Below, in pieces: positions 2,803-52,650 of a DNA stretch of 64,000 nt. Source of the stretch: Parcubacteria group bacterium. GTDB lineage: Bacteria > Patescibacteriota > Minisyncoccia > UBA10092. The notes beneath the pieces were generated by a model. That model saw only the letters and a list, made by a program, of their open reading frames with translations, made no database searches and was not told the DNA's origin. Every line of letters starts with the position of its first letter. Within the stretch, counting starts at the first letter, position 1. Location of the stretch: NCBI GenBank assembly GCA_016186325.1, contig JACPLW010000002.1, forward strand, positions 1,485 through 65,484, read 5' to 3'. The position numbers and the translations under genes were made by a program.

Positions 2803-2896
2803 GGACAGCGAGGTCGCCGCTGGGCGAATGAGCGCGCGAGAAAAATGATTTATTTATTATTTTAGCGCGCGAAGAAAAATGTGGCGAGAATTCCAA

Positions 2897-4738
2897 TTAC
2901 GCCCCAACCATAATCGCTTCAAACTCATCCCGTTCAATCGTTTCTTTTTCTATCAGCCGCATGGCAATTTCTTTAAGTTTTTTCCTTCTTTGGGAAATGA
3001 TTTTCTTTGCCGTGTCATAAGCAATAGAAAGAAAACTCGTAATTTCTCTGTCAATAAGCTGGGCTACCGATTCTGAATAGTTTTTTTCTGATCCGAGTCC
3101 TCTGCCTAGAAACACCATTTCGTTTTCTTCGCCCAAAGAAATTGGGCCTAGTTTTTCCGACATCCCAAATTCGGTAACCAACTTTCTCGCCAGGTCGGTT
3201 GCTTTTTTAAGATCACTCGCGGCACCGGTAGTAAGTTCTTTGAAAACAATTTTTTCGGCCGCATAGCCCCCCATCAAAACGGCAAGATCGGCCAAAAATT
3301 GGCCTTTGGAATGAAGATGGCGGTCTTCAATCGGGAGCTTTAAAGTATAGCCGGCGGCACTGCCACGGGAAACAATCGAAATTTTATGAACCGGGTCGGC
3401 ATTGGGCAAAACGCCGGCAACCAACGCATGGCCCGCTTCGTGATAAGAAGCAATTTCTTTTTCTTTTTCTGAAAGAATGTGGCTTTTGCGTTCCGGCCCT
3501 AAAAGAACTTTTTCAATGGCATAGTAAAAAGTTTCTTGCTCAACGATTTTTTTGTTCTGGCGGGCGGTTAAAATCGCCGCCTCGTTTATGACGTTAGCCA
3601 AATCGGCGCCGGAAAAACCCGGAGTTCTTTCGGCAACCCTTCTCAAGTTAACTTCCGGAGCCATGGGCTTATCAAGCGCGTGGATTTTTAAAATCGCCTC
3701 GCGATCGTTTATATCCGGAATATCAATCATGATTCGGCGGTCAAACCGTCCGGGGCGAAGCAACGCTGGATCCAAAATGTCGGGACGGTTTGTAGCCGCC
3801 ACAATAATAACGTTGGTCTCACGGTCAAACCCGTCCATTTCAACTAGAATTTGATTGAGCGTTTGCTCTCTTTCATCATGACCGCCGCCAAGGCCCGCGC
3901 CTCTTTGCCTGCCAACCGCGTCAATTTCGTCAATAAAAATGATAGAAGGTGCGAATTTTTTTGCCATATTGAATAAATCTCTAACTCTTGAAGCGCCAAC
4001 CCCGACAAACATTTCCACAAACTCGGAACCGGAAATGTAGAAAAAAGGCACGTTGGCTTCGCCGGCAACAGCTCGAGCTAAGAGGGTTTTGCCGGTGCCC
4101 GGCGCGCCTACAAGAAGAGCGCCTCTTGGAATTCTGGCGCCAATATCTAAAAATTTTTTTGGATTTTTCAAAAAATCAACAATTTCAACGAGTTCTTCCT
4201 TGGCTTCGTTCGCTCCGGCAACATCGGAAAACATAACTTTTTTGCGTCCATCAAACGGCCCGGAAAGTTTGGCTTGCGATTTGCCAAATGAAAATGCACC
4301 CATATTGGCGCGACCGGCCTGCCGCATCATGTACCATATTAAAAATCCGACGAAGATAAACGGCAAAATAATGGGAAGAACCGTGCCGGCCCAAAAACTA
4401 AAACCAACGCTTTGTTCAACTTGAATATTTACATTTTTTAACTTAGCGCCGTCAACGCCATAGTTTTTCAGGGTTTCGGAGAGCGAACTTTCAATTTCTT
4501 TTTTGGCAAAAAATTTATCGTTGTTTTTAGAAGTTATTTCCAAATCATCGTTTTTAACGACAATTTTCGAGATTTCTTCGTTATTTATTTTACTAACCAG
4601 CTCGGAAAGAGCAATCACGTTCGGCTTTTCAAAAGCCGAATTAAGATAAGCAAAAATAAACGCGATCAAAAATAACGCGCCCAAGACAATAAGAATCTGA
4701 TTGATAAACTTTTTATAATTGAATTTAATTATTTTCAT
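2897..4738 (-). CDS. ftsH: ATP-dependent zinc metalloprotease FtsH
   Basis: 613 aa; N-terminal TM segments; Walker A GAPGTGKT; Walker B IIFIDEID; zinc motif HEAGHA. Confidence 0.95.
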
Positions 4739-4789
4739 AATCGGTTTTTGGTTATATTATCATAAAATTCAGAAATAGGCAATTTAATA

Positions 4790-4857
4790 CCCCGTCCCGC
4801 AGCCCCGACGTTGTAGTCGGGGCTCCGACCATAATGCGTCGGAGCTGCGGGACGGGG
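4790..4857. repeat. composite multi-hairpin element (family A outer stem plus two inner hairpins)
   Basis: CCCCGTCCCGCAGC [CCCGAC..GTCGGG] [CTCCGAC..GTCGGAG] CTGCGGGACGGGG; second copy of the same architecture at 54098-54155. Confidence 0.6.
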
Positions 4858-4870
4858 TTATCCTAGAATC

Positions 4871-6208
4871 TTACAAATCTCTAATTTCTTGGCCATTATA
4901 ACCGCCTAAAACTCGAATACATTGGTTATGATCTCTAATTTTCCTCATCAGCCCTTGAAAAGCTGAAAGAGTGGCATGGGTAACAATTACCTGCCACGGA
5001 TTTATCTTGTATACCCATTCAGACAGCTCTTTTCCGGAAGCATGCGACGAGAGATGAAATCTCTCCACATCGCAATGTCTGGGAATTTGCTGACGGTTTA
5101 CTTGGAACTGATGGCCGCGCTCAAGCTCTAAGAGCCGCCGGCCGCCGGTGCCCTCTACTTGATAACCCGGCAAAAGCACCGCGCTTTTATGGTCTGTCAG
5201 AATGTGGGGCAGATAAAACATCGCGAGTCCGCCCTCAAGCATTCCATGGGAAGAAACGATTACCGCCGGACCGCTTTTAAGAAGTTCTTGGCGGTAAGCG
5301 TAGGCCTCTTCCTGCTCTTCGGGAACGGCAATCAAATTTCTGGGAAAAGCTAAGCCATTATCATTAGGACTCCATTCATTAGAGTCGTTGATGATACCGG
5401 CCGCCGTTCTAATCATCCCATCAATATGAACCGGAACATCAATTCCGGCCTTGGCTAAGCCATTGGCCAAAATAATGCCTATGTTCGGTCCAGTGATGGA
5501 AAAAGACGGGACCAAAACCTTTCCACCCCGGCCTAGAATCCCGATAACCCGATTAACAAACCGTTGTTCCTCATGTTCACGGTCCGGCAAATTCCGGTCG
5601 CCGTAAGTTCCCTCCGTGATTAAAACCTCCGGAGAAAAAATATCATTGATAACTTCAGCCCCCTTAATGGTCGGCTGGTCGTGAAAACTAATGTCTCCCG
5701 AATGAGTTATCCTAAAACCGCTTGGGGAAACGATATCGATGCTCGCCGCTCCATTAATGTGGCCGGATGACCGAAATCTCATTTTCCAGCCCGGCCAAGG
5801 CGAAAACCATTCCGGCTTATGGACTAACTTAAATCTTTTGGGACTCACCGCCTTACTTATATCGGAAGCGGAGAAATATATATCAACTTTTTCTCCTCTA
5901 TCCAGTTTACGAGTTACGACTTTGTAAGAATCCCACAAAAGCATGCGGGTAAAGCGCCAAGTAACTTTGGTGCTGTAAACAGGCGTATCGGGATGCGCGT
6001 TCGTAAAAAGAGGCAGCATTCCGATGTGGTCAAGATGGCCGTGAGTTAAAAGCAACGCATCAACATGGCCTTCCACTATCGGCGGAGGCAAAATCTTTCC
6101 GCCTCTTTGCACTGCTCCGCAGTCAATAACAATCCTTTTGTTGTCAAGTTCAATTAAGTAATGAGACCCCGAGATGGGGACTCCGCCACTGAGCGCAGTA
6201 AACCTCAC
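4871..6208 (-). CDS. MBL-fold beta-CASP ribonuclease (RNase J / CPSF-like)
   Basis: 445 aa; metallo-beta-lactamase motif HGHLDHIG; beta-CASP-like C-terminal region. Confidence 0.65.
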   Translation of the reverse strand: MRFTALSGGVPISGSHYLIELDNKRIVIDCGAVQRGGKILPPPIVEGHVDALLLTHGHLDHIGMLPLFTNAHPDTPVYSTKVTWRFTRMLLWDSYKVVTRKLDRGEKVDIYFSASDISKAVSPKRFKLVHKPEWFSPWPGWKMRFRSSGHINGAASIDIVSPSGFRITHSGDISFHDQPTIKGAEVINDIFSPEVLITEGTYGDRNLPDREHEEQRFVNRVIGILGRGGKVLVPSFSITGPNIGIILANGLAKAGIDVPVHIDGMIRTAAGIINDSNEWSPNDNGLAFPRNLIAVPEEQEEAYAYRQELLKSGPAVIVSSHGMLEGGLAMFYLPHILTDHKSAVLLPGYQVEGTGGRRLLELERGHQFQVNRQQIPRHCDVERFHLSSHASGKELSEWVYKINPWQVIVTHATLSAFQGLMRKIRDHNQCIRVLGGYNGQEIRDL

Positions 6209-11506: not shown

Positions 11507-14044
11507 ATGACTAAAAAAATAATCACAAACTCTAAAGAAACCCCTAAAAACGAAAGAGATTCGCAAAACTTAAACTTATCCGCAAAGGGTGGGGGAGAAA
11601 CGGGCTACGTAAAACCGCGGGAAATCGTCCGCGAGATGGAAGATTCGTATCTTGAGTACGCGATGTCGGTTATTATTTCCCGCGCTCTTCCCGATGTCAG
11701 AGACGGACTAAAGCCGGTTCACCGCCGGATTCTTTATGCCATGCACGATCTGGGCCTGACCCATCAGGCAAAATTCCGCAAATCGGCTCTTGTTGTCGGC
11801 GAGGTTTTGGGTAAATATCATCCGCACGGCGATATTTCGGTTTACGACGCCTTAACCCGGTTGGCGCAGGACTTTTCTTTGCGTTACCCGCTGGTAAACG
11901 GACAAGGTAATTTCGGAAGCATTGACGCCGACGCGCCGGCGGCGATGCGTTACACGGAGGCGCGGCTTACTTCGCTCGCCGAGGAAATGCTAAAAGACAT
12001 AGATAAAAACACTGTAGATTTTATTGATAATTATGACGCCACCCGCAAAGAGCCAAAAGTTCTTCCGGCCGCTGTTCCCCAGCTTCTTTTAAACGGCACC
12101 GTGGGTATAGCCGTAGGTATGGCTACAAATATTCCGCCCCATAATCTTGGGGAGATAATTGACGCTACTTGCCAACTTATTAAACATCCTAAAAGTTCGG
12201 TTGAAGACCTTTTGGAATTCGTAAAGGGTCCCGACTTTCCGACCGGCGGCATTATTTATTCCAAAAAAGATATTGCCGCCGCTTACGCCACCGGTAGGGG
12301 GCCTATTATCGCCCGCGGCGTAGCCGAAGCGGTTGAGGATAAAAAAGGCCGCGCTCAAATAATAATTACCGAAATTCCGTATCAGGTAAATAAATCAACC
12401 CTTCTTGAAAAAATTGCCGAGCTTGTCAGCGAGAAAAAAATTGACGGTATCCGCGACTTACGCGACGAATCGGACAGGGAGGGCATGAGAATTGTCATTG
12501 AGCTCAAAAGCGACGCCGCGCCGCAAAAGATTTTGAATAACCTCTACAAGCACACCGATCTTCAAAAAACTTTCCACTTAAACATGCTGGCTTTAGTTGA
12601 CGAAATCCAACCGCAAGTTCTTTCGCTTAAGGCCGTTTTGGAATATTACCTAAAACACCGAGAAGAAGTGGTGGTGCGTCGCGTAAAATACGATTTGGTA
12701 AAAGCGCAAGAGCGAGCGCATATATTAGAGGGCTTAAAAAAAGCGCTTGATTCAATTGATGAAGTAATTAAGGTTATAAAGAAATCGCAAGACAGGAGCG
12801 AGGCCTTAAAAAATCTTATAAACAGGTTCAAACTCACGGAAATTCAGGGGAGCGCTATTTTGGAAATGAAACTTGCCACTCTAGCCAATCTTGAAAGAAA
12901 AAAGATTGAAGATGAACTTATTGAAAAGGTAAAATTGATTAAAGAATTGACCCTTATTTTAAAAAGCCGCGAAAAAATACTGGAAATAATTTATCAAGAG
13001 CTTCAGGCAATAAAAGAAAAATATAACGACCAGAGAAAAACGAAAGTTATGGCCTCGTCTCTGGGCGAATTCAGAGAAGAAGATTTGGTACCGCTTGAAG
13101 AAGCTGTCGTAGTCTTAACCGAATCCGGATACATTAAAAGAATGAATCCCTCTCTAGTCCGCTCACAGCATCGCGGCGGCAAGGGCATGACCGGAATGTC
13201 TACAAAAGAAGAGGACGCTGTCACCCACTTTGTTTCAGCAAAAACCCACGATAACGTTTTGTTCTTCACCAACACCGGCCGCGTTTTCCAAACTAAGGTC
13301 TGGGAAATTCCGGAGGCCAGCCGGCAATCGCGCGGCAAAGCCGCAGTAAACTTTTTGGCCTTGAGCGGCGATGAAAGAGTTAACGCGATTCTGACATACA
13401 ACGAAAAACAGCTAAAGGAGAAGGGCACTGAAAAGTTCTTGGTGATGGCAACCAAGAGCGGACTAGTCAAAAAAACACCGATCGCCGACTTCGGTTCGGT
13501 TCGTCATTCCGGCCTCATTGCCATAAAACTTAAGAAGGGCGACTCTCTCAAGTGGGTAAAAGGCTCTTCGGGCGAAGACCAAATAATTTTTGTAACTATG
13601 CTCGGGCAAGCGATAAGATTTTCGGAAAAAGACGCGCGGCCATTGGGGCGGGCGACAGCCGGAATGCATGGCATCCGCCTGCATCAGGGCGACGAAGTTG
13701 TCAGCATGGATGTAATAACCGCCTCGGCCGCAAAAGACCAAAACACCAAATTCTTGGTGATTATGGAAAACGGTTTCGGCAAAAAAACATTCATTAAATT
13801 TTACAAAAAACAAAACCGGGGCGGTTCCGGCGTTAAAACCGCTAAAGTTACCCCTAAGACCGGAAAAATCGTTTCGGCGTTCATTATAGGACCAGACACT
13901 AAGGAAATGATTGCCATTTCAAAAAAAGGCGTAGTAATCCGCCTTGATCTTGAGTCAATTTCAACCGTTTCACGTGTAACCCAAGGCGTCCGTATAATGA
14001 GAGTTGAAGCGGGAGATAAAGTAGTTTCAGCAACGTTGTTGTAG
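11507..14044 (+). CDS. gyrA: DNA gyrase subunit A
   Basis: 845 aa; [37 protein letters not shown]; full-length GyrA with C-terminal beta-pinwheel repeats. Confidence 0.95.
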
Positions 14045-14185
14045 CGACTTTACCATAGGAACTATTCTGCAGTGATCATATAGTGTATTTCAAAAGTTAC
14101 AACTTAAGAACCGATCGGAAATTAAGTTGTTAAAAATTTAAATTATGTCAAAACCTATAAAAGTTAAAAAGACATTAAAATAATT

Positions 14186-14223: not shown

Positions 14224-14715
14224 TCACCTGAGTCGCTTCTGGCAGCAACCCAGATCCCCCATCCATCCGCACGACGTGCGGAGATGGGCGATCCTACTGC
14301 TGCTCGTCACCCTGGGAGGAGACTCCATGGTGATGAACGGCACCGGCTCGACTGCCGCCGGCTTCCGTGGAGGAAGAGCGACGAGCTTGACGCTCACCAG
14401 CCGGCGCGGCCTCTCCTTCCTGGGCAGTGCCCAAGAATGGTGGCCGTTCGAAACTGCGTCCGCGGCCACACCAGCGAAGGTTGCGCCGTGCGCAACCTCC
14501 TCGAGGATTTCGCGGCGCTCCTTGCCCTGACGGTTGTAACCGCAGAGCAACTTGAACGGATCGGAACTATCGAGATTAAGGATAGACCCACGACGCGTGA
14601 TGCCGCGTGAGGCCTTACTCCCGATGAGTTTCGCATCTCCTCGCCGCCGCCGTCTCGTGTCCAGGCGGCGGTTGTTGCCGTCGTCGTAGGTGTTCCTGAA
14701 CCGCCCAAATTGCAT
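14224..14715 (-). CDS. hypothetical protein (GC-rich island gene)
   Basis: 163 aa; strong SD GAAGGAGGAGG 5 nt before ATG; Arg-rich; no recognisable family. Confidence 0.45.
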   Translation of the reverse strand: MQFGRFRNTYDDGNNRRLDTRRRRRGDAKLIGSKASRGITRRGSILNLDSSDPFKLLCGYNRQGKERREILEEVAHGATFAGVAADAVSNGHHSWALPRKERPRRLVSVKLVALPPRKPAAVEPVPFITMESPPRVTSSSRIAHLRTSCGWMGDLGCCQKRLR

Positions 14716-14750
14716 CTTCGCCTCCTCCTTCTTCTTTATTTAAAAAAACA

Positions 14751-14773
14751 GGGGGGGGTCGAACCGCCCCCCT
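14751..14773 (-). terminator. intrinsic terminator between the two GC-rich genes
   Basis: Minus strand GGGGGGCGGTTCGACCCCCCCC followed by TGTTTTTTT. Confidence 0.6.
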
Positions 14774-14779
14774 CGGATC

Positions 14780-15034
14780 CTAGACGACGACGCGCTTCGC
14801 GCTCGACGCGTGGAGCTCGTCGAGCGCCGCCTGGGTGAGGTTCTTGCGGACCCACATGTGGGCTCCGCAGAAGAGCGGCCGCACGCCCGGACGGCGCGCC
14901 TTCGTCGCGCGCTCGCCGCCGTTGCCCCGCTTCTGACGGCGGGGGTTGTCGCAATCGGCGACGCGGCACGACGCCTTGAAATGCGCGAGCCACTCTTCGC
15001 GAGGTGGAATGACGGCCACGATTTCGTAGCCCAT
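14780..15034 (-). CDS. hypothetical protein (GC-rich island gene)
   Basis: 84 aa; SD AAAGGAGAGAGG before ATG; Cys/His-containing. Confidence 0.45.
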   Translation of the reverse strand: MGYEIVAVIPPREEWLAHFKASCRVADCDNPRRQKRGNGGERATKARRPGVRPLFCGAHMWVRKNLTQAALDELHASSAKRVVV

Positions 15035-41242: not shown

Positions 41243-41301
41243 ATCTAAAAGAAAATTTTTCATAAGATTTGATACAACGAACAGCAGAAATGCTGATTTT
41301 T

Positions 41302-41334
41302 TGTTTCACGTGAAACATTGTTTGACGTGAAACA
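41302..41334. promoter_or_regulatory. tandem 16-bp operator-like palindromes TGTTTCACGTGAAACA / TGTTTGACGTGAAACA
   Basis: Two adjacent copies ~45 nt upstream of the HIT gene; the same motif pair recurs at 42963-43002. Confidence 0.6.
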
Positions 41335-41389
41335 ATGTAATTGTTAATCTTCAACTCAAAGAAATTGGACTTTAAAATTGGGGGAAAAC

Positions 41390-42001
41390 ATGAATAGCAA
41401 TTGTGTTTTCTGCGACCGAACCAAGATTGAGGAGCGTATTATTGCCGAAACGGAAGATTGGTACTTAATAGCTACCATTGGCCAAATAACAGAAGGCGGC
41501 TATGTTCTCATAATCCCCAAGCGGCATGTACCTTGCGCCGGAGCGATGAAAGAGCAAGAGATTGTTAAAATGGACGACATATCGCGCATTGCAAGCGATT
41601 ACACAGAGGTAGAGTACGGCGTAAGACCTATCATCTTTGAACATGGCATTGTGGGCCAGACGATTCAACATGCCCATCTTCATCTTTTACCCGCCCGGAT
41701 TCGCATGTGCGGCAGAATCTATCGGGATTTTCCCAACGCGCAGATCTGCTTCTTAGATTCGCTCAAACTGCTTCGATGGACTTATGATGCAATGGGAGGA
41801 AAAAAGTATCTCCTTTGGAGCACCCCGGAAAACCTGTTGAAGACCGTTATTGATCCGCCAGCGCCGTTGCAATATTTACGGCTAATTGCAGCCGAACTTG
41901 TTGGCCATCCGGAGCGCGCAAATTGGCGCGATTGTGATCCTGAAACCGACAAAAAACTGTGGCAGGAGACCGTTAGCCGCCTTAAGCCATATTTTTCATG
42001 A
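41390..42001 (+). CDS. HIT-family (histidine triad-like) hydrolase
   Basis: IIPKRHV and QHAHLHLLP histidine-triad-like motifs; SD TGGGGGAAAAC before ATG 41390. Confidence 0.55.
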   Translation: MNSNCVFCDRTKIEERIIAETEDWYLIATIGQITEGGYVLIIPKRHVPCAGAMKEQEIVKMDDISRIASDYTEVEYGVRPIIFEHGIVGQTIQHAHLHLLPARIRMCGRIYRDFPNAQICFLDSLKLLRWTYDAMGGKKYLLWSTPENLLKTVIDPPAPLQYLRLIAAELVGHPERANWRDCDPETDKKLWQETVSRLKPYFS

Positions 42002-42031: not shown

Positions 42032-42850
42032 CTATTCTGGGTTTTTTAATTTTTTATTCCTTAATAACAGGCGTATTTTGTACATTTTATCTTCATATTC
42101 CGCTTGAAAAACCTCATGAAGATAAAATCCTAAAGAAACAAGTTGAATTATCAGAAGAATAATACCTGTATAAAGGTAAAAATTGTTTTTCCATATTATG
42201 CCGGCTAAATAGAAAATCATGCTGAAAGCGGTAAGACCGGTGTGAAACCGCGCCCCGATCGTCGTTACTAAGTCATTTAGCAGAAATTCTTGCATAAACT
42301 CAAAATACAGCTGATCCCGCCTTTCGCGACGCTTTTCTCGCTGATAAAGCCACGTACCCAGCAAAATCAAAAACATACATGTTGCAGTGACTAGTAGAAT
42401 CGTGTTCATAATAAATAATGCCGGCCATCCAAACGATTTTGTCGCGTAAATGCTTAAAAATATCATCCATAAGATAAGTAAAAAATCTCTGGTATGATCC
42501 AAGAGAGTCCCCAAAGCTGTAACTTCATTGTTATTTCTCGCGACTGGGCCGTCTAAAAGATCGGTAATCCACGCAAAAGCTAAAAGCCATACTTGACGCC
42601 CAACATCATCCCCAAAATAAAACAGATCAAAAATCGCCCAAATAAGAACAACGAATCCCACCACGGTTAAATGATTTGCTCTTATTCCTATGGCTGCAAA
42701 AATATCGGTTATTTTTGTCCGCTTAAAGAACCGGTCGCGCCACTTTTTCTCAAGCGGTGTCCAATATCCCTCCTTCGTTAAAGCTTCCGCTGACGCCAAG
42801 GCTTTGGCGGACAAGTCGGCGGGCAAGCTCTCTTTTTCCTCTTCGGCCAT
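42032..42850 (-). CDS. CDP-alcohol phosphatidyltransferase family membrane protein
   Basis: DLLDGPVARNNNEVTALGTLLDHTRDFLL matches D-G-x2-A-R-x8-G-x3-D-x3-D; multiple TM helices. Confidence 0.6.
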   Translation of the reverse strand: MAEEEKESLPADLSAKALASAEALTKEGYWTPLEKKWRDRFFKRTKITDIFAAIGIRANHLTVVGFVVLIWAIFDLFYFGDDVGRQVWLLAFAWITDLLDGPVARNNNEVTALGTLLDHTRDFLLILWMIFLSIYATKSFGWPALFIMNTILLVTATCMFLILLGTWLYQREKRRERRDQLYFEFMQEFLLNDLVTTIGARFHTGLTAFSMIFYLAGIIWKNNFYLYTGIILLIIQLVSLGFYLHEVFQAEYEDKMYKIRLLLRNKKLKNPE

Positions 42851-42962
42851 TATTGTCCCTCCAAGTTTTTAAGGGTCTGATTTTTAATAAAAGAGTAAAC
42901 GAAATGTGAAAAAAAATCAATCTGCCAGCTGGTAAATTGATTTTTTTTCACCACAAATGATA

Positions 42963-43002
42963 TGTTTCACGTGTAACATTTGATAATGTTACACGTGAAA
43001 CA
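42963..43002. promoter_or_regulatory. second pair of TGTTTCACGTGNAACA operator-like palindromes
   Basis: TGTTTCACGTGTAACA and TGTTACACGTGAAACA, mutually reverse-complementary, between divergent genes 42850(-) and 43003(+). Confidence 0.6.
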
Positions 43003-45699: not shown

Positions 45700-46596
45700 T
45701 TATTTTCTCTGTTTTCCGTGAAAAGCGTTGTGGACTTCTCTTAATTTTTTATCGGTTATGTGGGTGTAAATTTGAGTCGTGGTTATATTTGAGTGTCCCA
45801 AAAGTTCCTGAACCGAGCGGATATCGGCGCCATTCATTAAAAGATCTGTGGCAAACGAGTGGCGCAAAGTATGGGGCGTGACTTTTTTTGAAAGCCCGGC
45901 TTTAGCCGCATAATGCTTCATCAACCGTTCAACACTTCGGCTTGTCAACCGCAGATTATCGGTCTTGGCCGGATTTTTTGTTTGCCTGATGAAAAGTGCC
46001 TCGTCAACGTCCTCTCGTCTTTCCAAATAGTTTTTTAGCGCTTCTTTGGCGGTATCGGAGATGAAAACCAGGCGGACTTTATCTCCTTTGCCGCGCACCG
46101 AAAACTCGCCGGATTTAAGGTTGACCGAATCGCGGTTTAAATTGCAAAGTTCAGAAACCCGCAGTCCGGTGGAAAATAATAGTTCCAAGATAGCTTTATC
46201 ACGAGCGTTGGTTGGAGATGTTAGTAGGCGCTCAATTTCGTTCCCTTCAAGGAAAGATACCTGCCTCTCCGATTGTTTCCCCAGCTCAATTTTGTCGGCC
46301 GGCATAACCTTGAAATCCCGCCGTGCCAGATATTTTAAAAAATTCCTAAGCCCTATTAAATAATAATTCTGGGTGATCTTTTTAAGCCCTCTTCCGTCCT
46401 GATTTGCCTGCCGGTTCAGCCAAAGACGGTATTGCCTGACCATTTCCGGTGTGATTTGTTCCGGTTTTAAAACCTTAGAAAACTCAAAGAATTTTTTTAA
46501 ATACCGTTCGTAATTCACCCGCGTTTTAATTGACCGGTTTTTTTCTATTTCCAGATAATCCAAATAGTCTTTTAGCAATTCGCCTATGTTTGTCAT
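45700..46596 (-). CDS. tyrosine site-specific recombinase (XerC/XerD-like)
   Basis: RHSFATDLLMNGADIRSVQELLGHSNITTTQIYTHI with catalytic R..H..Y. Confidence 0.85.
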   Translation of the reverse strand: MTNIGELLKDYLDYLEIEKNRSIKTRVNYERYLKKFFEFSKVLKPEQITPEMVRQYRLWLNRQANQDGRGLKKITQNYYLIGLRNFLKYLARRDFKVMPADKIELGKQSERQVSFLEGNEIERLLTSPTNARDKAILELLFSTGLRVSELCNLNRDSVNLKSGEFSVRGKGDKVRLVFISDTAKEALKNYLERREDVDEALFIRQTKNPAKTDNLRLTSRSVERLMKHYAAKAGLSKKVTPHTLRHSFATDLLMNGADIRSVQELLGHSNITTTQIYTHITDKKLREVHNAFHGKQRK

Positions 46597-47533: not shown

Positions 47534-47637
47534 TTAAAAAAATTAAATAAAATAATAATTAATGGTTCGTCTGTGGATAGGTAGTTCAGGACCTTTAGGT
47601 GCTGACCTAAAATCTATAGACGGACCTGCAAAAAATA

Positions 47638-49748
47638 TGCAGGAAGTAAAAAAATATTCTCTGGATTTTGCCCCGCCATCAGCGGGACGAGCCGGCCAGA
47701 CGCTAAAAATTGAAATAGGCAAACTGGCAAGTCAAGCTAATGGCGCCGTAACCGCACAACTCGGTGATACGGTAGTTTTGGCAACGTGCGTAATGTCAAA
47801 AAATCAGAAAATCGGAGTGAATTATATGCCGCTCACGGTTGATTATGAAGAAAAGTTTTATGCCCGCGGCAAAATTTTGGGCTCAAGATTTATGAGGCGG
47901 GAAGGCCGGCCTTCGGATGAAGCCATTCTAAACGGCCGTTTGATTGACCGGGCCCTGCGTCCGCTTTTTGATACAAGTATTCGCAATGAAATTCAAATTG
48001 TCACCACGGTTCTTTCGGTAGACGATAAAAATGACCCGGATATCGTTGCCATGATCGCTTCCTCGATAGCTCTTGCGATTTCTGACATCCCGTGGAACGG
48101 GCCTATCGCGGCTGTAAGAATTGGTCGCGCCGATTCAAAATGGATCTTGAATCCGAGTTTTGAAGAACGCCGATCGGGCATTACCGATTTAGTTGTTTCG
48201 GTCTCTCCGGACTTAAAAATAAATATGATCGAGGCCGGCGGATCTGAAATAAAAGAAGAAGAACTTTTGGAAGGATTCAAATTCGCCGAAGAAACTCTTA
48301 AAAATATCGTTGAGTTTATCAAAAAGATCGCCGGTGATTTTAATACACCAAAAGCGACGGCTGTTCTTGAGGCTACCGATAGCGAACTAGAAGAAAAAGC
48401 AAATGAATTTTTAAATGAAGACAACGCTCTTGAGAGCGCTCTTAACGAAAAGAAAAAAACGCAGTTGTGGATGAATTTAGACGTTTTAAAAGAAAAATTG
48501 ACGGCTTATATCAATACCATTGATGAATCAAAAGTAAAAATGGCAGAAAACTTTTTTGAAAAGGCAGTTGATAAAATGGTTCATAAAAATATTTTGGAAA
48601 AAGAATTGAGGCCAGACGGGAGATCTCTCGACGAATTGAGAGATTTAAGTTCTGAAATATCGTTTCTTCCCCGCACCCACGGTAGCGGCCTATTTCAGAG
48701 AGGCGAAACCCAAGTTTTGTCGGTTTTGACTTTGGGCGCTCCTTCCGATGAACTTATTATTGAGGGAATGGTAATAAGCACTAAAAAACACTTTGTCCAC
48801 CAATATAACTTTCCGCCTTTTTCGGTCGGAGAAATTGGCCGGATGGGCGGGCCGAAAAGAAGAGATATAGGCCATGGCGCTTTAGCCGAAAAAGCGCTTC
48901 AAATGATGGTGCCTGAAAAAGAAGAATTTCCTTATGCCATAAGAATCGTCTCCGAAGTTTTATCGTCCAACGGTTCTTCATCTATGGCATCAACTTGCGC
49001 CTCAACATTGGCGCTTATGGATGCCGGCGTGCCTCTTAAAAAACCGGTGGCCGGCATCGCCATGGGTTTGATGAGCGACGGGAAAAACGTTCATAAAATT
49101 TTAACCGACATTCAAGGCCCGGAAGACCACTATGGCGACATGGATTTTAAAGTGGCCGGCACGCGCGACGGTGTTACCGCCCTGCAAATGGATGTAAAAA
49201 TTGATGGAGTGGATATAGAAACACTCGAAAAAGCCCTGGCGCAGGCAAAAAAAGCGCGGCTCCAAATTTTGGATCATATGGCAAAAACCATCGCCGAGCC
49301 AAAAAAAGAATTATCGCCACTCGCGCCAAGAATTATTACCATGCAAGTTCATGTTGACAAAATTAGAGAGGTTATCGGCCCGGGCGGCAAAGTGATTAAC
49401 GATATCATCGCCAAAACCGGCGCCACGGTTGACATTGAAGATTCCGGCTTAATTTTCATAACCGCCGAAAATGAAGAAAGCGGGCTCAAAGCCAAACAAA
49501 TGGTTGAAGATATCGTTAAAGAGTACAAAATCGGCGATATCGTCACCGGTAAAGTAATTCAAATTCTTGATTTTGGCGCCATTGTTGAAATTGGCCGCGG
49601 AAAAGACGGAATGATACACATTTCGGAGCTCGCTCCGCGCCGAGTAGAAAAAGTCACCGACATCGTAAACATCGGCGACGAAGTAACAGTGAAAATAAAG
49701 AGGGTTGAAGGCGGAAAAATCAGTTTGTCGTTAAAAGACGTGAGTTAA
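47638..49748 (+). CDS. pnp: polynucleotide phosphorylase
   Basis: RNase PH domains, KH and S1; start taken at MQEVKKYSLDF (family-typical N-terminus); the ORF track extends to ATG 47562 across a stem-loop leader. Confidence 0.9.
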
Positions 49749-49760
49749 GAAATATAAAAT

Positions 49761-50135
49761 ATGAACGAGAATTTGCCAAAATCTGAAACTAACGAAGAAA
49801 GTGAGAAACATCTATTAAGTGACGCAAAACGTGTAATAAATTCTATGTGGAAAAAAGCGATGGACGCGGGCGATCTTCCATTGAGCGTAGATCCGAGTTA
49901 TCAGGTTTGGCTAGAAGATTTGGAAAAGCGTAAAAGCGAATTCGCAAGAGTTTTGTTTAACAAAGCTAGAGAATCGGTTGGAGAGGATAAACTTCGTTCA
50001 GCGCAGACACTTAAACATCTTATGGAGCTTCTCAATAACTCGGAGCGGCACGAATTGTTAAAAGAACTCATGACAACAGATGAAGCGATACAAAAATTGA
50101 TTGCGGATGCGGAGCAGCAGGTGAGATCAAAATAA
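49761..50135 (+). CDS. hypothetical protein
   Basis: 124-aa ORF within the inserted segment after pnp. Confidence 0.45.
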   Translation: MNENLPKSETNEESEKHLLSDAKRVINSMWKKAMDAGDLPLSVDPSYQVWLEDLEKRKSEFARVLFNKARESVGEDKLRSAQTLKHLMELLNNSERHELLKELMTTDEAIQKLIADAEQQVRSK

Positions 50136-50151
50136 ATACTTCTCAATCAAA

Positions 50152-50190
50152 TTACGGATTTTCAACCGATCGGAATAATGTCCGTAATTT
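50152..50190. repeat. 39-bp direct repeat copy 1 (ATTACGGATTTTCAACCGATCGGAATAATGTCCGTAATT)
   Basis: 38/39 identical to 50855-50893; internally an imperfect inverted repeat ATTACGGA..TCCGTAAT. Confidence 0.7.
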
Positions 50191-50233
50191 GAAGTAAGTG
50201 CAAAAATAAATAAAGTTCTTTTTATAAAAATTT

Positions 50234-50782
50234 TTATAGACGAAATCTCTCTTTAAGATCTAACTCAATATCAACATCTTTAATTCTTAAAAATCTTACG
50301 TAGGGAGCGAGGTTAAACATTTCTACAATAAAATCTATTTCATTTTTACATTCATATGGATGAATAAATACACTTTTCTGCATTGGGTAAAAGCCAAGCT
50401 CTTTTAACTTAGCTGCCAGGGCTTTTCTCCCAACATTTTTATCTTCGGGTATATCAAAAATTACTAAACGCCATAATTTGTCCCATTGCGTTGGTTTTTT
50501 AATTTCTATTTTATCCAAATCATATTTTAAAATTCTGCTTTTCCCTTTTGCGCTCAAAGTAAGCATAACCGTTCCGTCTTTATCTTCTTTATAGTCAACA
50601 AGCTTTGATCGGTACAATCTTTTTATTGCTTCTCTTAAATACCGCTCATTTATTTTTCCCCATTCTTTAGAAACTTTCTTTAGAATACGAAAATAATGAT
50701 CTGGCCGACGTGTTAAAGATAAAGCAAATCCAGCTTCTAAGAGAAGTAAAACTTTTTTACTTGCCGGTCCTAAATGTTTCAT
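50234..50782 (-). CDS. hypothetical protein with wHTH-like N-terminal and Cas2/VapD-like C-terminal signature
   Basis: 182 aa; C-terminal WRLVIFDIPEDKNVGRKALAAKLKELGFYPMQKSVFIHP resembles the Cas2-fold core; no cas genes or CRISPR nearby. Confidence 0.45.
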   Translation of the reverse strand: MKHLGPASKKVLLLLEAGFALSLTRRPDHYFRILKKVSKEWGKINERYLREAIKRLYRSKLVDYKEDKDGTVMLTLSAKGKSRILKYDLDKIEIKKPTQWDKLWRLVIFDIPEDKNVGRKALAAKLKELGFYPMQKSVFIHPYECKNEIDFIVEMFNLAPYVRFLRIKDVDIELDLKERFRL

Positions 50783-50854
50783 GTATTTCCTTTACTTTAT
50801 TATTTTTGATAATTTAATTTTTTTTATTATTTAAATTTAAATAATATCACAAAG

Positions 50855-50893
50855 ATTACGGATTTTCAACCGATCGGAATAATATCCGTAATT
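50855..50893. repeat. 39-bp direct repeat copy 2
   Basis: See copy 1. Confidence 0.7.
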
Positions 50894-51004
50894 GGCAATA
50901 GACACAAAAATAGAAAAATCAGTTTGTCGCTGAAGGATGCCGCAGATAGAAAATAGAAACAAAAAAAAGCCGTTGGAATTATATCCCACCGGCAAGAAGT
51001 TATT

Positions 51005-51181
51005 TTATCTTCTAACTTTAGCTCCGCAATCCCAGCAACGCTTATCGTCACTTGTCCAAGTATCGTGATCACAAGCAAATTTACCAACATCTTCAACAGG
51101 AATTATTTTCTCAAAGCCCCTTGAACGAATCCGGAGTACAAGATATTTACCTTGCGCATCACGCCGATACTCTGTTTTCAT
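51005..51181 (-). CDS. small zinc-ribbon protein (58 aa)
   Basis: SD AAGGAGG 4 nt before ATG; CDHD...CWDCG. Confidence 0.45.
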   Translation of the reverse strand: MKTEYRRDAQGKYLVLRIRSRGFEKIIPVEDVGKFACDHDTWTSDDKRCWDCGAKVRR

Positions 51182-51218
51182 GTTGCCTCCTTGGAGTTGA
51201 AGAGTGCCCCCCAGGGGC

Positions 51219-51401
51219 TTATCTGAAAACATGGCACATATCGTAATCTTTTTTAACTCTTGTCGCGCTATAGCCAGAGATTAGGCGAGCTTCTCGATAC
51301 GCTTGAGGTAAAAATGTATCACATCTTGGCGAGCACCAATTTTTATGGTCTTTTATTTCTTTCTCAACGGCTTTTCGCAGTTCTTGGACAGTTTTTTTCA
51401 T
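51219..51401 (-). CDS. small hypothetical protein (60 aa)
   Basis: SD GAGGAGG before ATG; tandem with 51005-51181. Confidence 0.45.
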   Translation of the reverse strand: MKKTVQELRKAVEKEIKDHKNWCSPRCDTFLPQAYREARLISGYSATRVKKDYDMCHVFR

Positions 51402-51549
51402 AACGCCTCCTCGTTGTTAAAAAACAGAAAAAGTGCTGTGAACAGAGTCTATAACACAACAGTTTTAAACTCAAGTTTTATGTTGCTGTGGATAAACGAA
51501 CAACATTGTCCTGCAGCTGCGAGGTGGTTTTTATGTTATAATAAAAATA

Positions 51550-52650
51550 ATGGCAGACCCAACTACACAAAAAGACGAAAATATTGTTATTCGGACAATG
51601 AAAAGCGACCTGGAAGACTTGAACAATCCTCGTCCAAAAAAAGAGAAGGAACCGATTCCGGTAATGCCGGCGGGATCTATTTCTAAAGAGACGCAATACA
51701 AGGCACCTCAAATGCCAACGCTCCCGCCACTGCCAAAAATAGAAGAGAAAACTAAACCGCCTATTTTAATTGTTCCGCAAAAAATTATTCCTCCAAAGGA
51801 GATCACTGAAATCCCCGCGAGACCTATATATAAAGCTATGCCCGCGTTGATTAAGATTGGCGCCATCGGATTGGGCGTAATTTTAATCACGATTTTTGGA
51901 CTTTATGGCTATTGGAAAGTTTTTATTCAAACTGAACCGCCGGCGCCACCCGTTATTACGCCTAGCGCCACAACCACTGTTCCCGGATTTCCTATAACGC
52001 CATCCGCTACCACAACAGCACCCATAAAATTCTTCAATAAACTACCGAACAAAACGGTGACAATTGATTTGTCTTCAAAAACACCGGGCGCGCTAATTCA
52101 AGCATTACAATCTGAAGCGGCTGTAAGCGAGACACGCGCTTCGGTAAAACAAATTAAAGTAACCTACCTGGGGAAATCTATAACTGCTCAAGAATTCTTT
52201 GACTTGATGTCTATCTTCGCTCCACAGAATTTTCTGTCAAACTATGAAAATGAATTTGCTTTTACTTTTTTCTATCACTTATACCAGCAAAAAAACGAAG
52301 TGCGGCCAATTTTGATTTTAAAAACCAAAAACCGAGACTTGGCTCAAACCCAGCTGCAAGATTGGGAAAAAACCAGCTTAATAAGCGATATGTACCCTTT
52401 GTTTTTATTAGATTTTAAATTACCAACAATAAAATCTTTTAAATCTTACTTATTTATCAATCAACCTGTCCGATATCTAAACATTAATGTCCCGTACGCT
52501 TCATTAAGCTACACAATCTATAACGACTTTGTTATTTTATCGACTTCCAGTGCCGGAATGTTTGTAATTTTGCAAGACTTGACGGGACAAAGCATTTCCG
52601 CCGATTACTTAAAGCGTCTCGAGGCTTCACTCGGAAATTTAACCAGATAA
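51550..52650 (+). CDS. membrane-anchored Pro/Thr-rich hypothetical protein
   Basis: 366 aa; TM helix AIGLGVILITIFGLYGYW; PT-rich linker. Confidence 0.5.
   Translation: MADPTTQKDENIVIRTMKSDLEDLNNPRPKKEKEPIPVMPAGSISKETQYKAPQMPTLPPLPKIEEKTKPPILIVPQKIIPPKEITEIPARPIYKAMPALIKIGAIGLGVILITIFGLYGYWKVFIQTEPPAPPVITPSATTTVPGFPITPSATTTAPIKFFNKLPNKTVTIDLSSKTPGALIQALQSEAAVSETRASVKQIKVTYLGKSITAQEFFDLMSIFAPQNFLSNYENEFAFTFFYHLYQQKNEVRPILILKTKNRDLAQTQLQDWEKTSLISDMYPLFLLDFKLPTIKSFKSYLFINQPVRYLNINVPYASLSYTIYNDFVILSTSSAGMFVILQDLTGQSISADYLKRLEASLGNLTR

Follow-up and report, generated by a model that had tools for sequence, protein, structure and literature searches.

The DNA analysed here, a window of 64,000 nucleotides (nt) from a Parcubacteria group bacterium, carries an islet (49739-50912) inserted into the 3' end of pnp, the polynucleotide phosphorylase gene, and within this islet a minus-strand gene (50234..50782) for a 182-aa protein made of a winged helix and a Cas2-like domain, flanked on either side by a copy of a 39-bp palindrome. 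We think it probable, though well short of certain, that the islet occupies a recombination hotspot at the pnp terminus and contains a self-contained, probably self-repressing cassette, in which a shortened relative of the regulator PaaX (here called mini-PaaX) is bracketed by operator-type palindromes. This palindrome-bracketed arrangement is general to a large protein family found almost entirely in bacteria of the candidate phyla radiation (CPR), or Patescibacteria. The genomes of these bacteria are tiny and poor in regulators, and their gene gain and loss are little understood. Members of the family lie in small variable islets at the ends of the essential genes pnp, gyrA and ychF. In the literature searched, we found no description of a palindrome-bracketed mini-PaaX, and no paper joining PaaX with a Cas2-like domain or with Patescibacteria/CPR. 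All the elements described in an earlier reading of this region (the original prediction) are present, and the observation behind it is therefore real; its interpretation of the repeats is revised below.

The islet and the displaced end of pnp

The pnp gene lies on the plus strand in an open reading frame (ORF) at 47562..49748, which ends in ...KISLSLKDVS*. The longest form of this ORF has 728 aa, and a start at 47637 would give 703 aa; because the pnp products of relatives have 700-704 aa, the true start is probably 47637, the first 25 codons (47562-47636) probably remaining untranslated. The Pfam domains RNase_PH, KH and S1 are present in the identical pnp of L001 (L numbers designate the loci and contigs used for comparison). 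As originally noticed, the last codons of the gene recur downstream, with 49714-49738 repeated at 50913-50937. The two copies share 22 of 25 bases, including an exact run of 17 nt, and the three mismatches (TTA/CTG, AAA/AAG and GAC/GAT) are all synonymous. The second copy reads in frame as ...KISLSLKDAADRK*, with its stop at 50956.

The origin of the second copy became apparent when metagenome contigs were scanned with the 265 C-terminal residues of pnp. L080, which at 86% identity over these 265 aa is the closest relative, has a pnp that ends in ...GGKISLSLKDAADRK*, the same peptide as is encoded by the second copy in the window, and about 90 bp past its stop codon it runs straight into a homologue of the 366-aa gene found at 51550 in the window, with no regulator gene between them. 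With an empty site and an identical pnp tail in L080, the second copy in the window is therefore the original end of pnp: the islet is inserted into the 3' end of the gene, the original terminus is displaced, and L080 carries the empty-site allele. Both the insertion and the alternative C-terminus that had been proposed are thus borne out, and the annotation of the window gains a corrected C-terminus for pnp as well as an identified recombination hotspot. Two blocks of the window are extra with respect to L080, one inside the pnp end (49739-50912) and one behind it (~50957-51480). By joining the last codons of pnp, the first block would supply the new tail VS* and push the AADRK* terminus 1.2 kb downstream. 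The left copy of the duplicated terminus, which is attL-like, occupies 49689..49748 on the plus strand (recognisable repeat, 49714-49738), and the displaced terminus, an attR-like remnant whose peptide KISLSLKDAADRK* is identical to the C-terminus of L080 pnp, occupies 50913..50956 on the same strand. The GC content is 29-33% in the region of the regulator gene versus 42-50% in pnp. A more distant relative, L082 (78% identity in pnp), ends its pnp in AGTK* and has a HicB/HicA pair in place of the islet.

The repeat had been taken for a target duplication of ~28 bp, an interpretation that the relatives contradict. In these, the first codons of the displaced copy are always (V)KIKRVEGGKISLSLKD, the start of VKIKRVEGG corresponding to position 49689 of the window, and the duplicated terminus spans 50-55 nt with differing tails on its two copies, which are identical at 50 of 50 positions in L010. 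Three types of pnp tail (xADRK-like; VS/VR/MS/VN-like; [AI]NQ) are combined variously on functional and displaced copies among genomes, and in L162 the remnant carries the pnp allele KRIEGG and the functional copy KRVENG. The duplication bears the signature of recombination within a short stretch of the target gene, either at an att-type specific site or by Campbell-type homologous integration of a circle that contained part of the host gene, and is not a target-site duplication of the kind made by transposases; the islet would have integrated by recombination within ~50 nt of the pnp terminus. The sole tyrosine recombinase of the window (45700-46596) is of the Xer type, scoring 253.6 bits with the XerA model, above its cutoff, and far below the cutoffs of the integron-integrase models. 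An Xer-type gene stands at the same syntenic position in the empty-site genomes L080 and L082.

Related islets are found behind pnp elsewhere. The identical 182-aa protein is encoded on five Logan contigs, arranged as in the window, and homologues with 82-91% identity lie behind pnp in L006, L010/L011, L160/L161, L162 and L163-L166. These loci share one order, namely pnp, a variable cargo, a palindrome, the regulator gene in convergent orientation to pnp, a second palindrome and the displaced pnp end, and it recurs with differing cargo and tails in L006, L010, L160 and L162. The cargo slot is occupied by an ORF of 124 aa in the window (49761..50135, plus strand, from the ORF list) and in L163-L166, by a 59-aa gene in L010, by a 55-aa ORF in L162 and by non-coding DNA in L006. 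The 124-aa product, which had been placed correctly between the repeats together with the minus-strand gene, has no assigned family, showing no Pfam, NCBIfam or PADLOC match above noise. It belongs to a small family of 27 proteins, whose members stand behind pnp with the regulator gene in L163-L166 and without it in L167. The interval between pnp and the 366-aa gene is a recombination hotspot in which small cargo genes and toxin-antitoxin pairs come and go, among them HicBA in L082 and a RelBE-like pair in L162. In the latter locus, translations inspected by eye show a RelB-like ORF and a RelE-like toxin gene with an in-frame stop (~2890-3360, minus strand), located between the second palindrome and the pnp remnant. 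In L006, the strand opposite pnp carries a promoter-like site, TTGATA-17-TATAAT, between the pnp stop and the first palindrome (~4740-4860), followed by ~85 nt that are GC-rich, apparently structured and closed by a T-run, with no Rfam match; this slot may hold a small RNA gene. An Rfam scan of the window, L006, L010 and L080 returned tRNAs only and left the islet empty of matches, for which reason a known RNA was rejected as an explanation of it.

Comparable duplications occur at other genes. In L036, the 3' end of ychF is present in three copies (2611-2681, 3789-3851 and 4636-4708), which bracket a regulator cassette and a block with a 107-aa ORF and a probable HicA/HicB pair (read from translations), suggesting serial integration at one gene end. 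In L039, a 174-bp duplication (3087-3260 and 4593-4766; 86% identical) of the 5' end of an apparent phosphohexomutase gene flanks a 160-aa ORF and the regulator gene; no downstream palindrome was found here.

The mini-PaaX protein and its palindromes

The winged-helix N-terminus and the Cas2/VapD-like C-terminus that had been suspected in the 182-aa protein are supported by profile searches and by structure prediction. Residues 98-170 match Pfam PF20803 (PaaX_M, the central Cas2-like domain of PaaX) with an E-value of 1.2e-19 and 70.6 bits against a cutoff of 24. Cas2 models stay just under their cutoffs (PF09827, 22.1 vs 23.8; TIGR01573, 23.7 vs 24.5), and the PaaX equivalog TIGR02277 aligns only over positions 32-148 of its 279, with 34 bits against a cutoff of 264.6. 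No PaaX_C match was obtained in the Pfam scan, and the chain ends at residue 182. An AlphaFold model built on 90 diverse homologues (pLDDT 86), which replaced an earlier run with 18 close homologues (pLDDT 56), consists of a winged helix of the order H-H-H-E-E (residues 6-76), a linker helix and a beta-alpha-beta-beta-alpha-beta domain. Foldseek ranks Escherichia coli PaaX (8a39) first, followed by Rv0674 (3kfw) and then by Cas2 proteins and VapD, and the alignment to 8a39 covers 143 columns, N-terminal domain included. A sequence search of the Protein Data Bank gave a marginal Cas2 match only, and the PADLOC models gave only weak Cas2 matches for this protein and nothing for the cargo ORFs. 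From the profile matches and the predicted fold taken together, we conclude that the protein is a PaaX without the C-terminal effector domain. In the alignment of 90 sequences, the invariant positions are W100, D110, R119 and S137 in the Cas2-like domain and G80 close to where the winged-helix region ends, the remainder of this region being variable; in the profile alignment to 3exc, D110 falls on the Asp of the Cas2 YDV motif at the end of strand 1.

The mini-PaaX family comprises 3,654 clusters at 50% identity (E<=1e-3), with proteins typically of 180-200 aa. The 67 loci drawn from species genomes are nearly all labelled Patescibacteria, one short contig being labelled otherwise, and up to three copies occur per genome. 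A single family locus was found among 2.9 million viral contigs, which therefore provide no evidence for a phage vehicle.

The gene in the window is bracketed, as predicted, by a 39-bp direct repeat that is itself an imperfect palindrome. Copy 1 (50151..50189), downstream of the gene, reads ATTACGGAT-N21-GTCCGTAAT around the centre CCGATCGG and is a predicted second binding site and/or insulator; copy 2 (50855..50893), upstream of the gene, is a predicted auto-operator. The two differ by one mismatch, and no such match arose in 100 shuffles; the direct repeat around the 39-mer extends to 64 nt at 84% identity. The outer arms of 9 bp on each side of N21 add up to the 39 bp, with CCGATCGG at the middle. 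Neither the 39-mer with up to three mismatches nor its core or half-site has dispersed copies in the 64-kb window, and the half-site AATTACGGA is confined to the two repeats.

A survey of the gene flanks extended the comparison to 67 further genomic loci, or 70 when the window and three relatives are counted. A palindrome of ~40 bp is present on both flanks of the gene in 65 of these 70 loci, across Patescibacteria. On average, 16.6 and 17.0 of 22 arm positions pair in the two copies, as compared with 5.7 (sd 2.2) around random centres in the same loci, of which 0.09% reach 15. The copies lie 516-963 bp apart from centre to centre (median, 650) and are alike within a locus; their arms vary from locus to locus and among the paralogues of a single genome (for instance L013, L017 and L023). 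Perfect palindromes of 40-50 bp are found among many copies (L028, L030, L053 and L055), and the downstream copy is the more palindromic one in 32 loci and the upstream copy in 19. The centre C-N-A-T-N-G, which occurs as CGATCG, CTATAG or CCATGG, is near-invariant (C, 0.99; A, 0.94; T, 0.97; G, 0.98). In the folding analysis, copy 1 of the window scored better than its shuffles (z = -3.2), with z = -0.9 to -1.9 for copy 2 and the solo copies described below, and no T-run terminator was called at either window copy.

The upstream palindrome overlaps the predicted promoter of the regulator gene. A sigma-70 promoter on the minus strand (50841..50869), composed of TTGAAA (50869-50864), a 17-nt spacer and TG-n-TATTAT, has its -35 box inside copy 2, and is the best promoter-like site in 49600-51600, with 10 of 12 positions matched and an extended TG. 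Transcription is predicted to begin ~7 nt past TATTAT, near 50834 on the minus strand. A -35/-10 arrangement placed 3-5 nt from the palindrome centre is present at 22 of 65 upstream copies versus 2 of 65 downstream copies.

Some alleles retain a palindrome without the gene. In L167, from the same genome as L013, L017 and L023, pnp (tail VVDKR*) is followed by a 123-aa homologue of the cargo (76% identity), a solo palindrome AATTACTGTTTTTCAACCGATCGGAAAAATAATCGTAATT and the 366-aa gene. To the left of this palindrome the sequence agrees with that left of window copy 1 (..tcaatcaAATTAC), and to its right with that right of copy 2 (GTAATTggyaata..), so that the gene and one palindrome, together 704 bp long (window 50151..50854), make up the difference between the alleles. 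The window itself holds a solo palindrome, ACAACTTAA-GAACCGATCGGAAA-TTAAGTTGT (14096..14133), between gyrA (11507..14044) and the gene of the CCA-adding enzyme (15173..), a position taken by a palindrome-flanked paralogue in L008/L009 and L013-L016. By eye, this copy is ~84% like the palindrome of the L017 type and unlike the type present at that site in relatives. As regards the further copies of the 39-mer that the original prediction had suggested looking for, none is dispersed in the 64 kb, and what exists instead is this related solo palindrome and the locus-specific palindromes of the family at large. Multiple copies also occur as arrays: L060 shows the order palindrome, 196-aa gene, palindrome, regulator gene, palindrome, and L073 has three upstream and two downstream copies. 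The Logan contigs L002, L004 and L005, from three runs, stop 5-6 nt past the outer edge of palindrome 1, which marks a branch point of the assembly graph, and L007 begins within the upstream palindrome; these ends suggest strain-level variation exactly at the palindrome sites. The source metagenome runs are SRR12113383, SRR12113384, SRR12113420, SRR12113424 and SRR12113430, and a further allele that lacks the cassette, L168, comes from SRR12113422. Solo copies would be explained by deletion between direct repeats of 39-44 bp, for which no dedicated enzyme is needed.

Two side observations concern the surroundings of palindromes in the window. Next to the solo copy behind gyrA lies a block (14224-15034) that is, by eye, far richer in GC than its surroundings and holds the minus-strand ORFs 14224..14715 and 14780..15034; it resembles foreign DNA taken up recently, and a 42-aa ORF in the corresponding place of L008 shares the leader and the MGY..V..P start of its 84-aa ORF. 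Elsewhere, tandem copies of another palindrome, TGTTTCACGTGAAACA, occur at 41301-41338 and 42958-43002, close to either end of the gene pair 41378..42001 / 42032..42850, and may be the operator of a different regulator.

Proposed self-repression and its alternatives

The simplest reading of these data is that the palindrome is the cognate site of the protein, with a predicted auto-operator upstream of the gene and a second site downstream, where binding might act by looping, road-blocking or termination. E. coli PaaX, which represses its own promoter, binds the operator TGATTC(N27)GAATCA with a span of 39 bp (PMC9493321). By analogy, the 182-aa protein would dimerise through its Cas2-like domain and bind the palindromes on either side of its own gene. 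Winged helices and arms both vary, and Cas2-like core and palindrome centre are both invariant; this match suggests a dimer placed symmetrically about the dyad, in which the winged helices would read the locus-specific arms and the Cas2-like dimer would lie over C-N-A-T-N-G. With the -35 box inside the upstream palindrome, binding there would switch the gene off, as PaaX does at its own promoter Px, and the downstream copy might loop, road-block or terminate convergent transcription arriving from pnp. Gene and one palindrome would be gained or lost as a unit through recombination between palindromes. If mini-PaaX proteins are only self-repressing regulators, they would represent a natural set of orthogonal protein-operator pairs and would explain the presence of a Cas2-like domain in PaaX.

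Several observations weigh against parts of this explanation. Among close subfamily members, the putative recognition helix INER.LR..I..LY.SK stays constant even where some arm positions differ, which makes the proposed reading of the arms by the winged helix tentative. Both the QKSVF motif and the Cas2-type Asp D110, which is invariant, hint that the domain does more than dimerise. A regulator that apparently controls itself alone, with no other site in 64 kb, lacks an obvious cellular purpose. No integrase is encoded in the islets of the window and of relatives with the same topology, and the islet ORFs of the window have no recombinase match in Pfam, NCBIfam or PADLOC. In a rough pnp tree (219 shared residues, neighbour joining), the empty or solo alleles L080, L167 and L082 are nested inside cassette-bearing clades and are therefore perhaps losses. 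The regulator proteins at one site diverge about in step with pnp (82-91% vs 82-86%), and in combination with the nested empty alleles this points to inheritance that is mostly vertical, with losses.

We consider it possible, if rather doubtful, that the palindromes are primarily recombination sites, at which the gene plus one palindrome excises as a circle and integrates at a solo palindrome. The reaction would be catalysed by a host recombinase (for instance the single Xer-type enzyme) or by the Cas2-like domain of the cassette nicking C-N-A-T-N-G, and would be mechanistically like that of integron cassettes, pdif modules or the duplication of repeats in CRISPR arrays. Such a role would suit a presence/absence unit bounded exactly by palindromes, the two arms around a symmetric core of 6-8 bp with a near-invariant centre, which resemble recombinase sites, the arrays in L060 and L073, the ends of contigs of three runs at 5-6 nt beyond palindrome 1, the gyrA-site solo copy that by eye is 84% of L017 type and not of the type usual at that site, the invariant Asp at the Cas2 catalytic position and the multiple copies of the family per genome. 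However, same-site copies form orthologous groups that diverge in step with pnp under mostly vertical inheritance, and direct repeats of 39-44 bp can delete without a dedicated enzyme. The arms differ among the paralogues of one genome, so that one host recombinase serving them all is unlikely; the family is near-absent from viral contigs, no recombinase is linked to the cassette, and no circular junction was observed. If the palindromes do prove to be recombination sites as well, a new cassette system and a new activity of the Cas2 fold would follow. A stronger version, which we judge unlikely, would make the protein and its two palindromes an autonomous recombination module, in which the dimer nicks or bridges C-N-A-T-N-G and moves the gene plus one palindrome to solo palindromes, the palindrome being duplicated much as a CRISPR repeat is at spacer insertion, and variable islets being seeded at the ends of housekeeping genes. 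Such a module, if real, would constitute a mobile cassette system based on a Cas2 domain and largely restricted to CPR, possibly related to the ancestry of the adaptation module.

The palindromes might also act mainly as nucleic-acid hairpins, that is, as bidirectional terminators or insulators for a gene wedged among housekeeping genes, their mutual likeness being a by-product of duplication. Many downstream copies are indeed perfect, with arms of 20-22 bp, and stand 3-150 nt after the stop codon between A-rich and T-rich flanks; downstream copies are the more palindromic in 32 loci vs 19, and window copy 1 folds better than its shuffles (z = -3.2). The upstream copy, however, overlaps and precedes the promoter and so lies outside the transcript of the gene, copy 2 and the solo copies fold not significantly better than shuffles, and neither window copy has a T-run terminator. 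In addition, the sequence of the centre C-N-A-T-N-G is conserved beyond what pairing demands, and the span equals that of the PaaX operator (PMC9493321). We regard this account as improbable. Equally slim, in our estimate, are the chances that the duplicated pnp terminus arose by local tandem duplication, followed by divergence and gene conversion, with L080 as a secondary precise deletion. The nesting of empty alleles within occupied clades of the pnp tree would agree with this history, as would the 50/50 identity of the L010 copies, which suggests ongoing conversion, and the mixture of ADRK-type, VS/MS/VN-type and INQ-type tails among relatives. Against it stand the alleles of L162 (KRIEGG in the remnant vs KRVENG in the functional copy), the GC content of the regulator region (29-33%, vs 42-50% in pnp), the same topology at unrelated genes (the threefold ychF 3' end of L036 and the 174-bp 5' end of the phosphomutase gene of L039) and, by eye, the lack of any likeness between what follows one copy in the window and what follows the other.

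Neighbouring features and comparison with known systems

The second block that is extra with respect to L080 (50957..51480, minus strand) is absent from L080, L163 and L167 and holds two small ORFs on the minus strand. One, of 75 aa (51005..51232), has a C-terminal CxxC motif and a likely start at Met18; the other, of 60 aa (51219..51401), has a counterpart in L006 with 77% conservation. No family match was obtained for either in Pfam, NCBIfam or PADLOC. The regulator gene has as its neighbours pnp, rpsO, genes for an NYN-domain protein, an Xer-type recombinase, a glycoside hydrolase 3 and a DksA-like protein, and small ORFs. In L054, a 42-nt segment (2751-2792 and 4942-4983; 93% identical) lies inside two unrelated ORFs, in both of which it encodes ..DAEN(N/D)IR(L/V)NPFNNPR..; it could be a small in-frame mobile insertion.

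Several known kinds of element were considered and set aside. The description of the 39-mer as attC- or MITE-like is not sustained: the window contains no integron integrase and no dispersed copies, the repeat has the geometry of a PaaX operator, it accompanies the gene throughout the family, and a predicted promoter lies within it. By eye, the 39-mer shows no attC features and no GTTRRRY core, and its centre CCGATCGG is symmetric. An integron cassette was rejected, there being no IntI, attI or Pc, an Xer-type gene that is syntenic in empty-site genomes, and a predicted promoter belonging to the cassette itself. A MITE or transposon was rejected on the basis of only two copies and one related solo copy in 64 kb, a half-site found only inside the repeats, and the linkage of the repeat to the gene. 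An IS200/IS605 or REP-RAYT element was rejected, the protein consisting of a winged helix and a Cas2-like domain with no Y1_Tnp/HUH match, and a CRISPR element for want of an array and of cas1.

With integron cassettes and the pdif modules of Acinetobacter, the mini-PaaX cassette shares single genes delimited by imperfect palindromes, solo sites and small arrays. It differs in the absence of IntI, attI and Pc, in carrying its own predicted promoter inside the site, in palindromes without the Xer 11-6-11 layout and in sites that differ between paralogues within one genome. Cas2 and VapD resemble the C-terminal domain in fold, in motifs and in the invariant Asp at the end of strand 1, and a gene between two partly palindromic repeats of ~40 bp superficially recalls the repeat-spacer-repeat unit. 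In mini-PaaX, however, this domain is fused to a DNA-binding domain, and the 516-963 bp between the repeats are taken up by the gene. There is no CRISPR-like tandem array in the window and no cas1 among the neighbours in the individually inspected loci; mini-PaaX lacks the VapX partner of VapD, and we know of no nuclease activity of the protein.

The islet as a whole is comparable to integrative islands at the 3' ends of genes, in that the terminus of the target gene is directly repeated, a substitute end is supplied, an empty-site allele exists, the cargo is variable and includes toxin-antitoxin pairs, and accretion can be serial (ychF in L036). It differs in its size of only ~1.2-1.8 kb, in encoding no integrase and in a topology that also occurs at the 5' end of a gene (L039); homologous, Campbell-type integration fits equally well.

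The closest likeness of the protein is to PaaX, the GntR-type repressor of phenylacetate catabolism, represented by 8a39 and by Rv0674 (3kfw), which gave the best sequence-profile and fold matches. The winged helix and the PF20803 Cas2-like domain are both present, the predicted operator is an inverted repeat with a long spacer and the same 39-bp span (9-N21-9 in the window), and the site overlaps the gene's own promoter, as at PaaX Px. Mini-PaaX differs in its length (182 aa vs ~305-316), in the missing C-terminal effector (phenylacetyl-CoA) domain and in having no paa genes near it. The Cas2-type FDIP Asp and the QKSVF motif are retained in it, its gene lies between two predicted operator copies and is present several times per genome with locus-specific sites, and its retrieved relatives are almost all labelled Patescibacteria.

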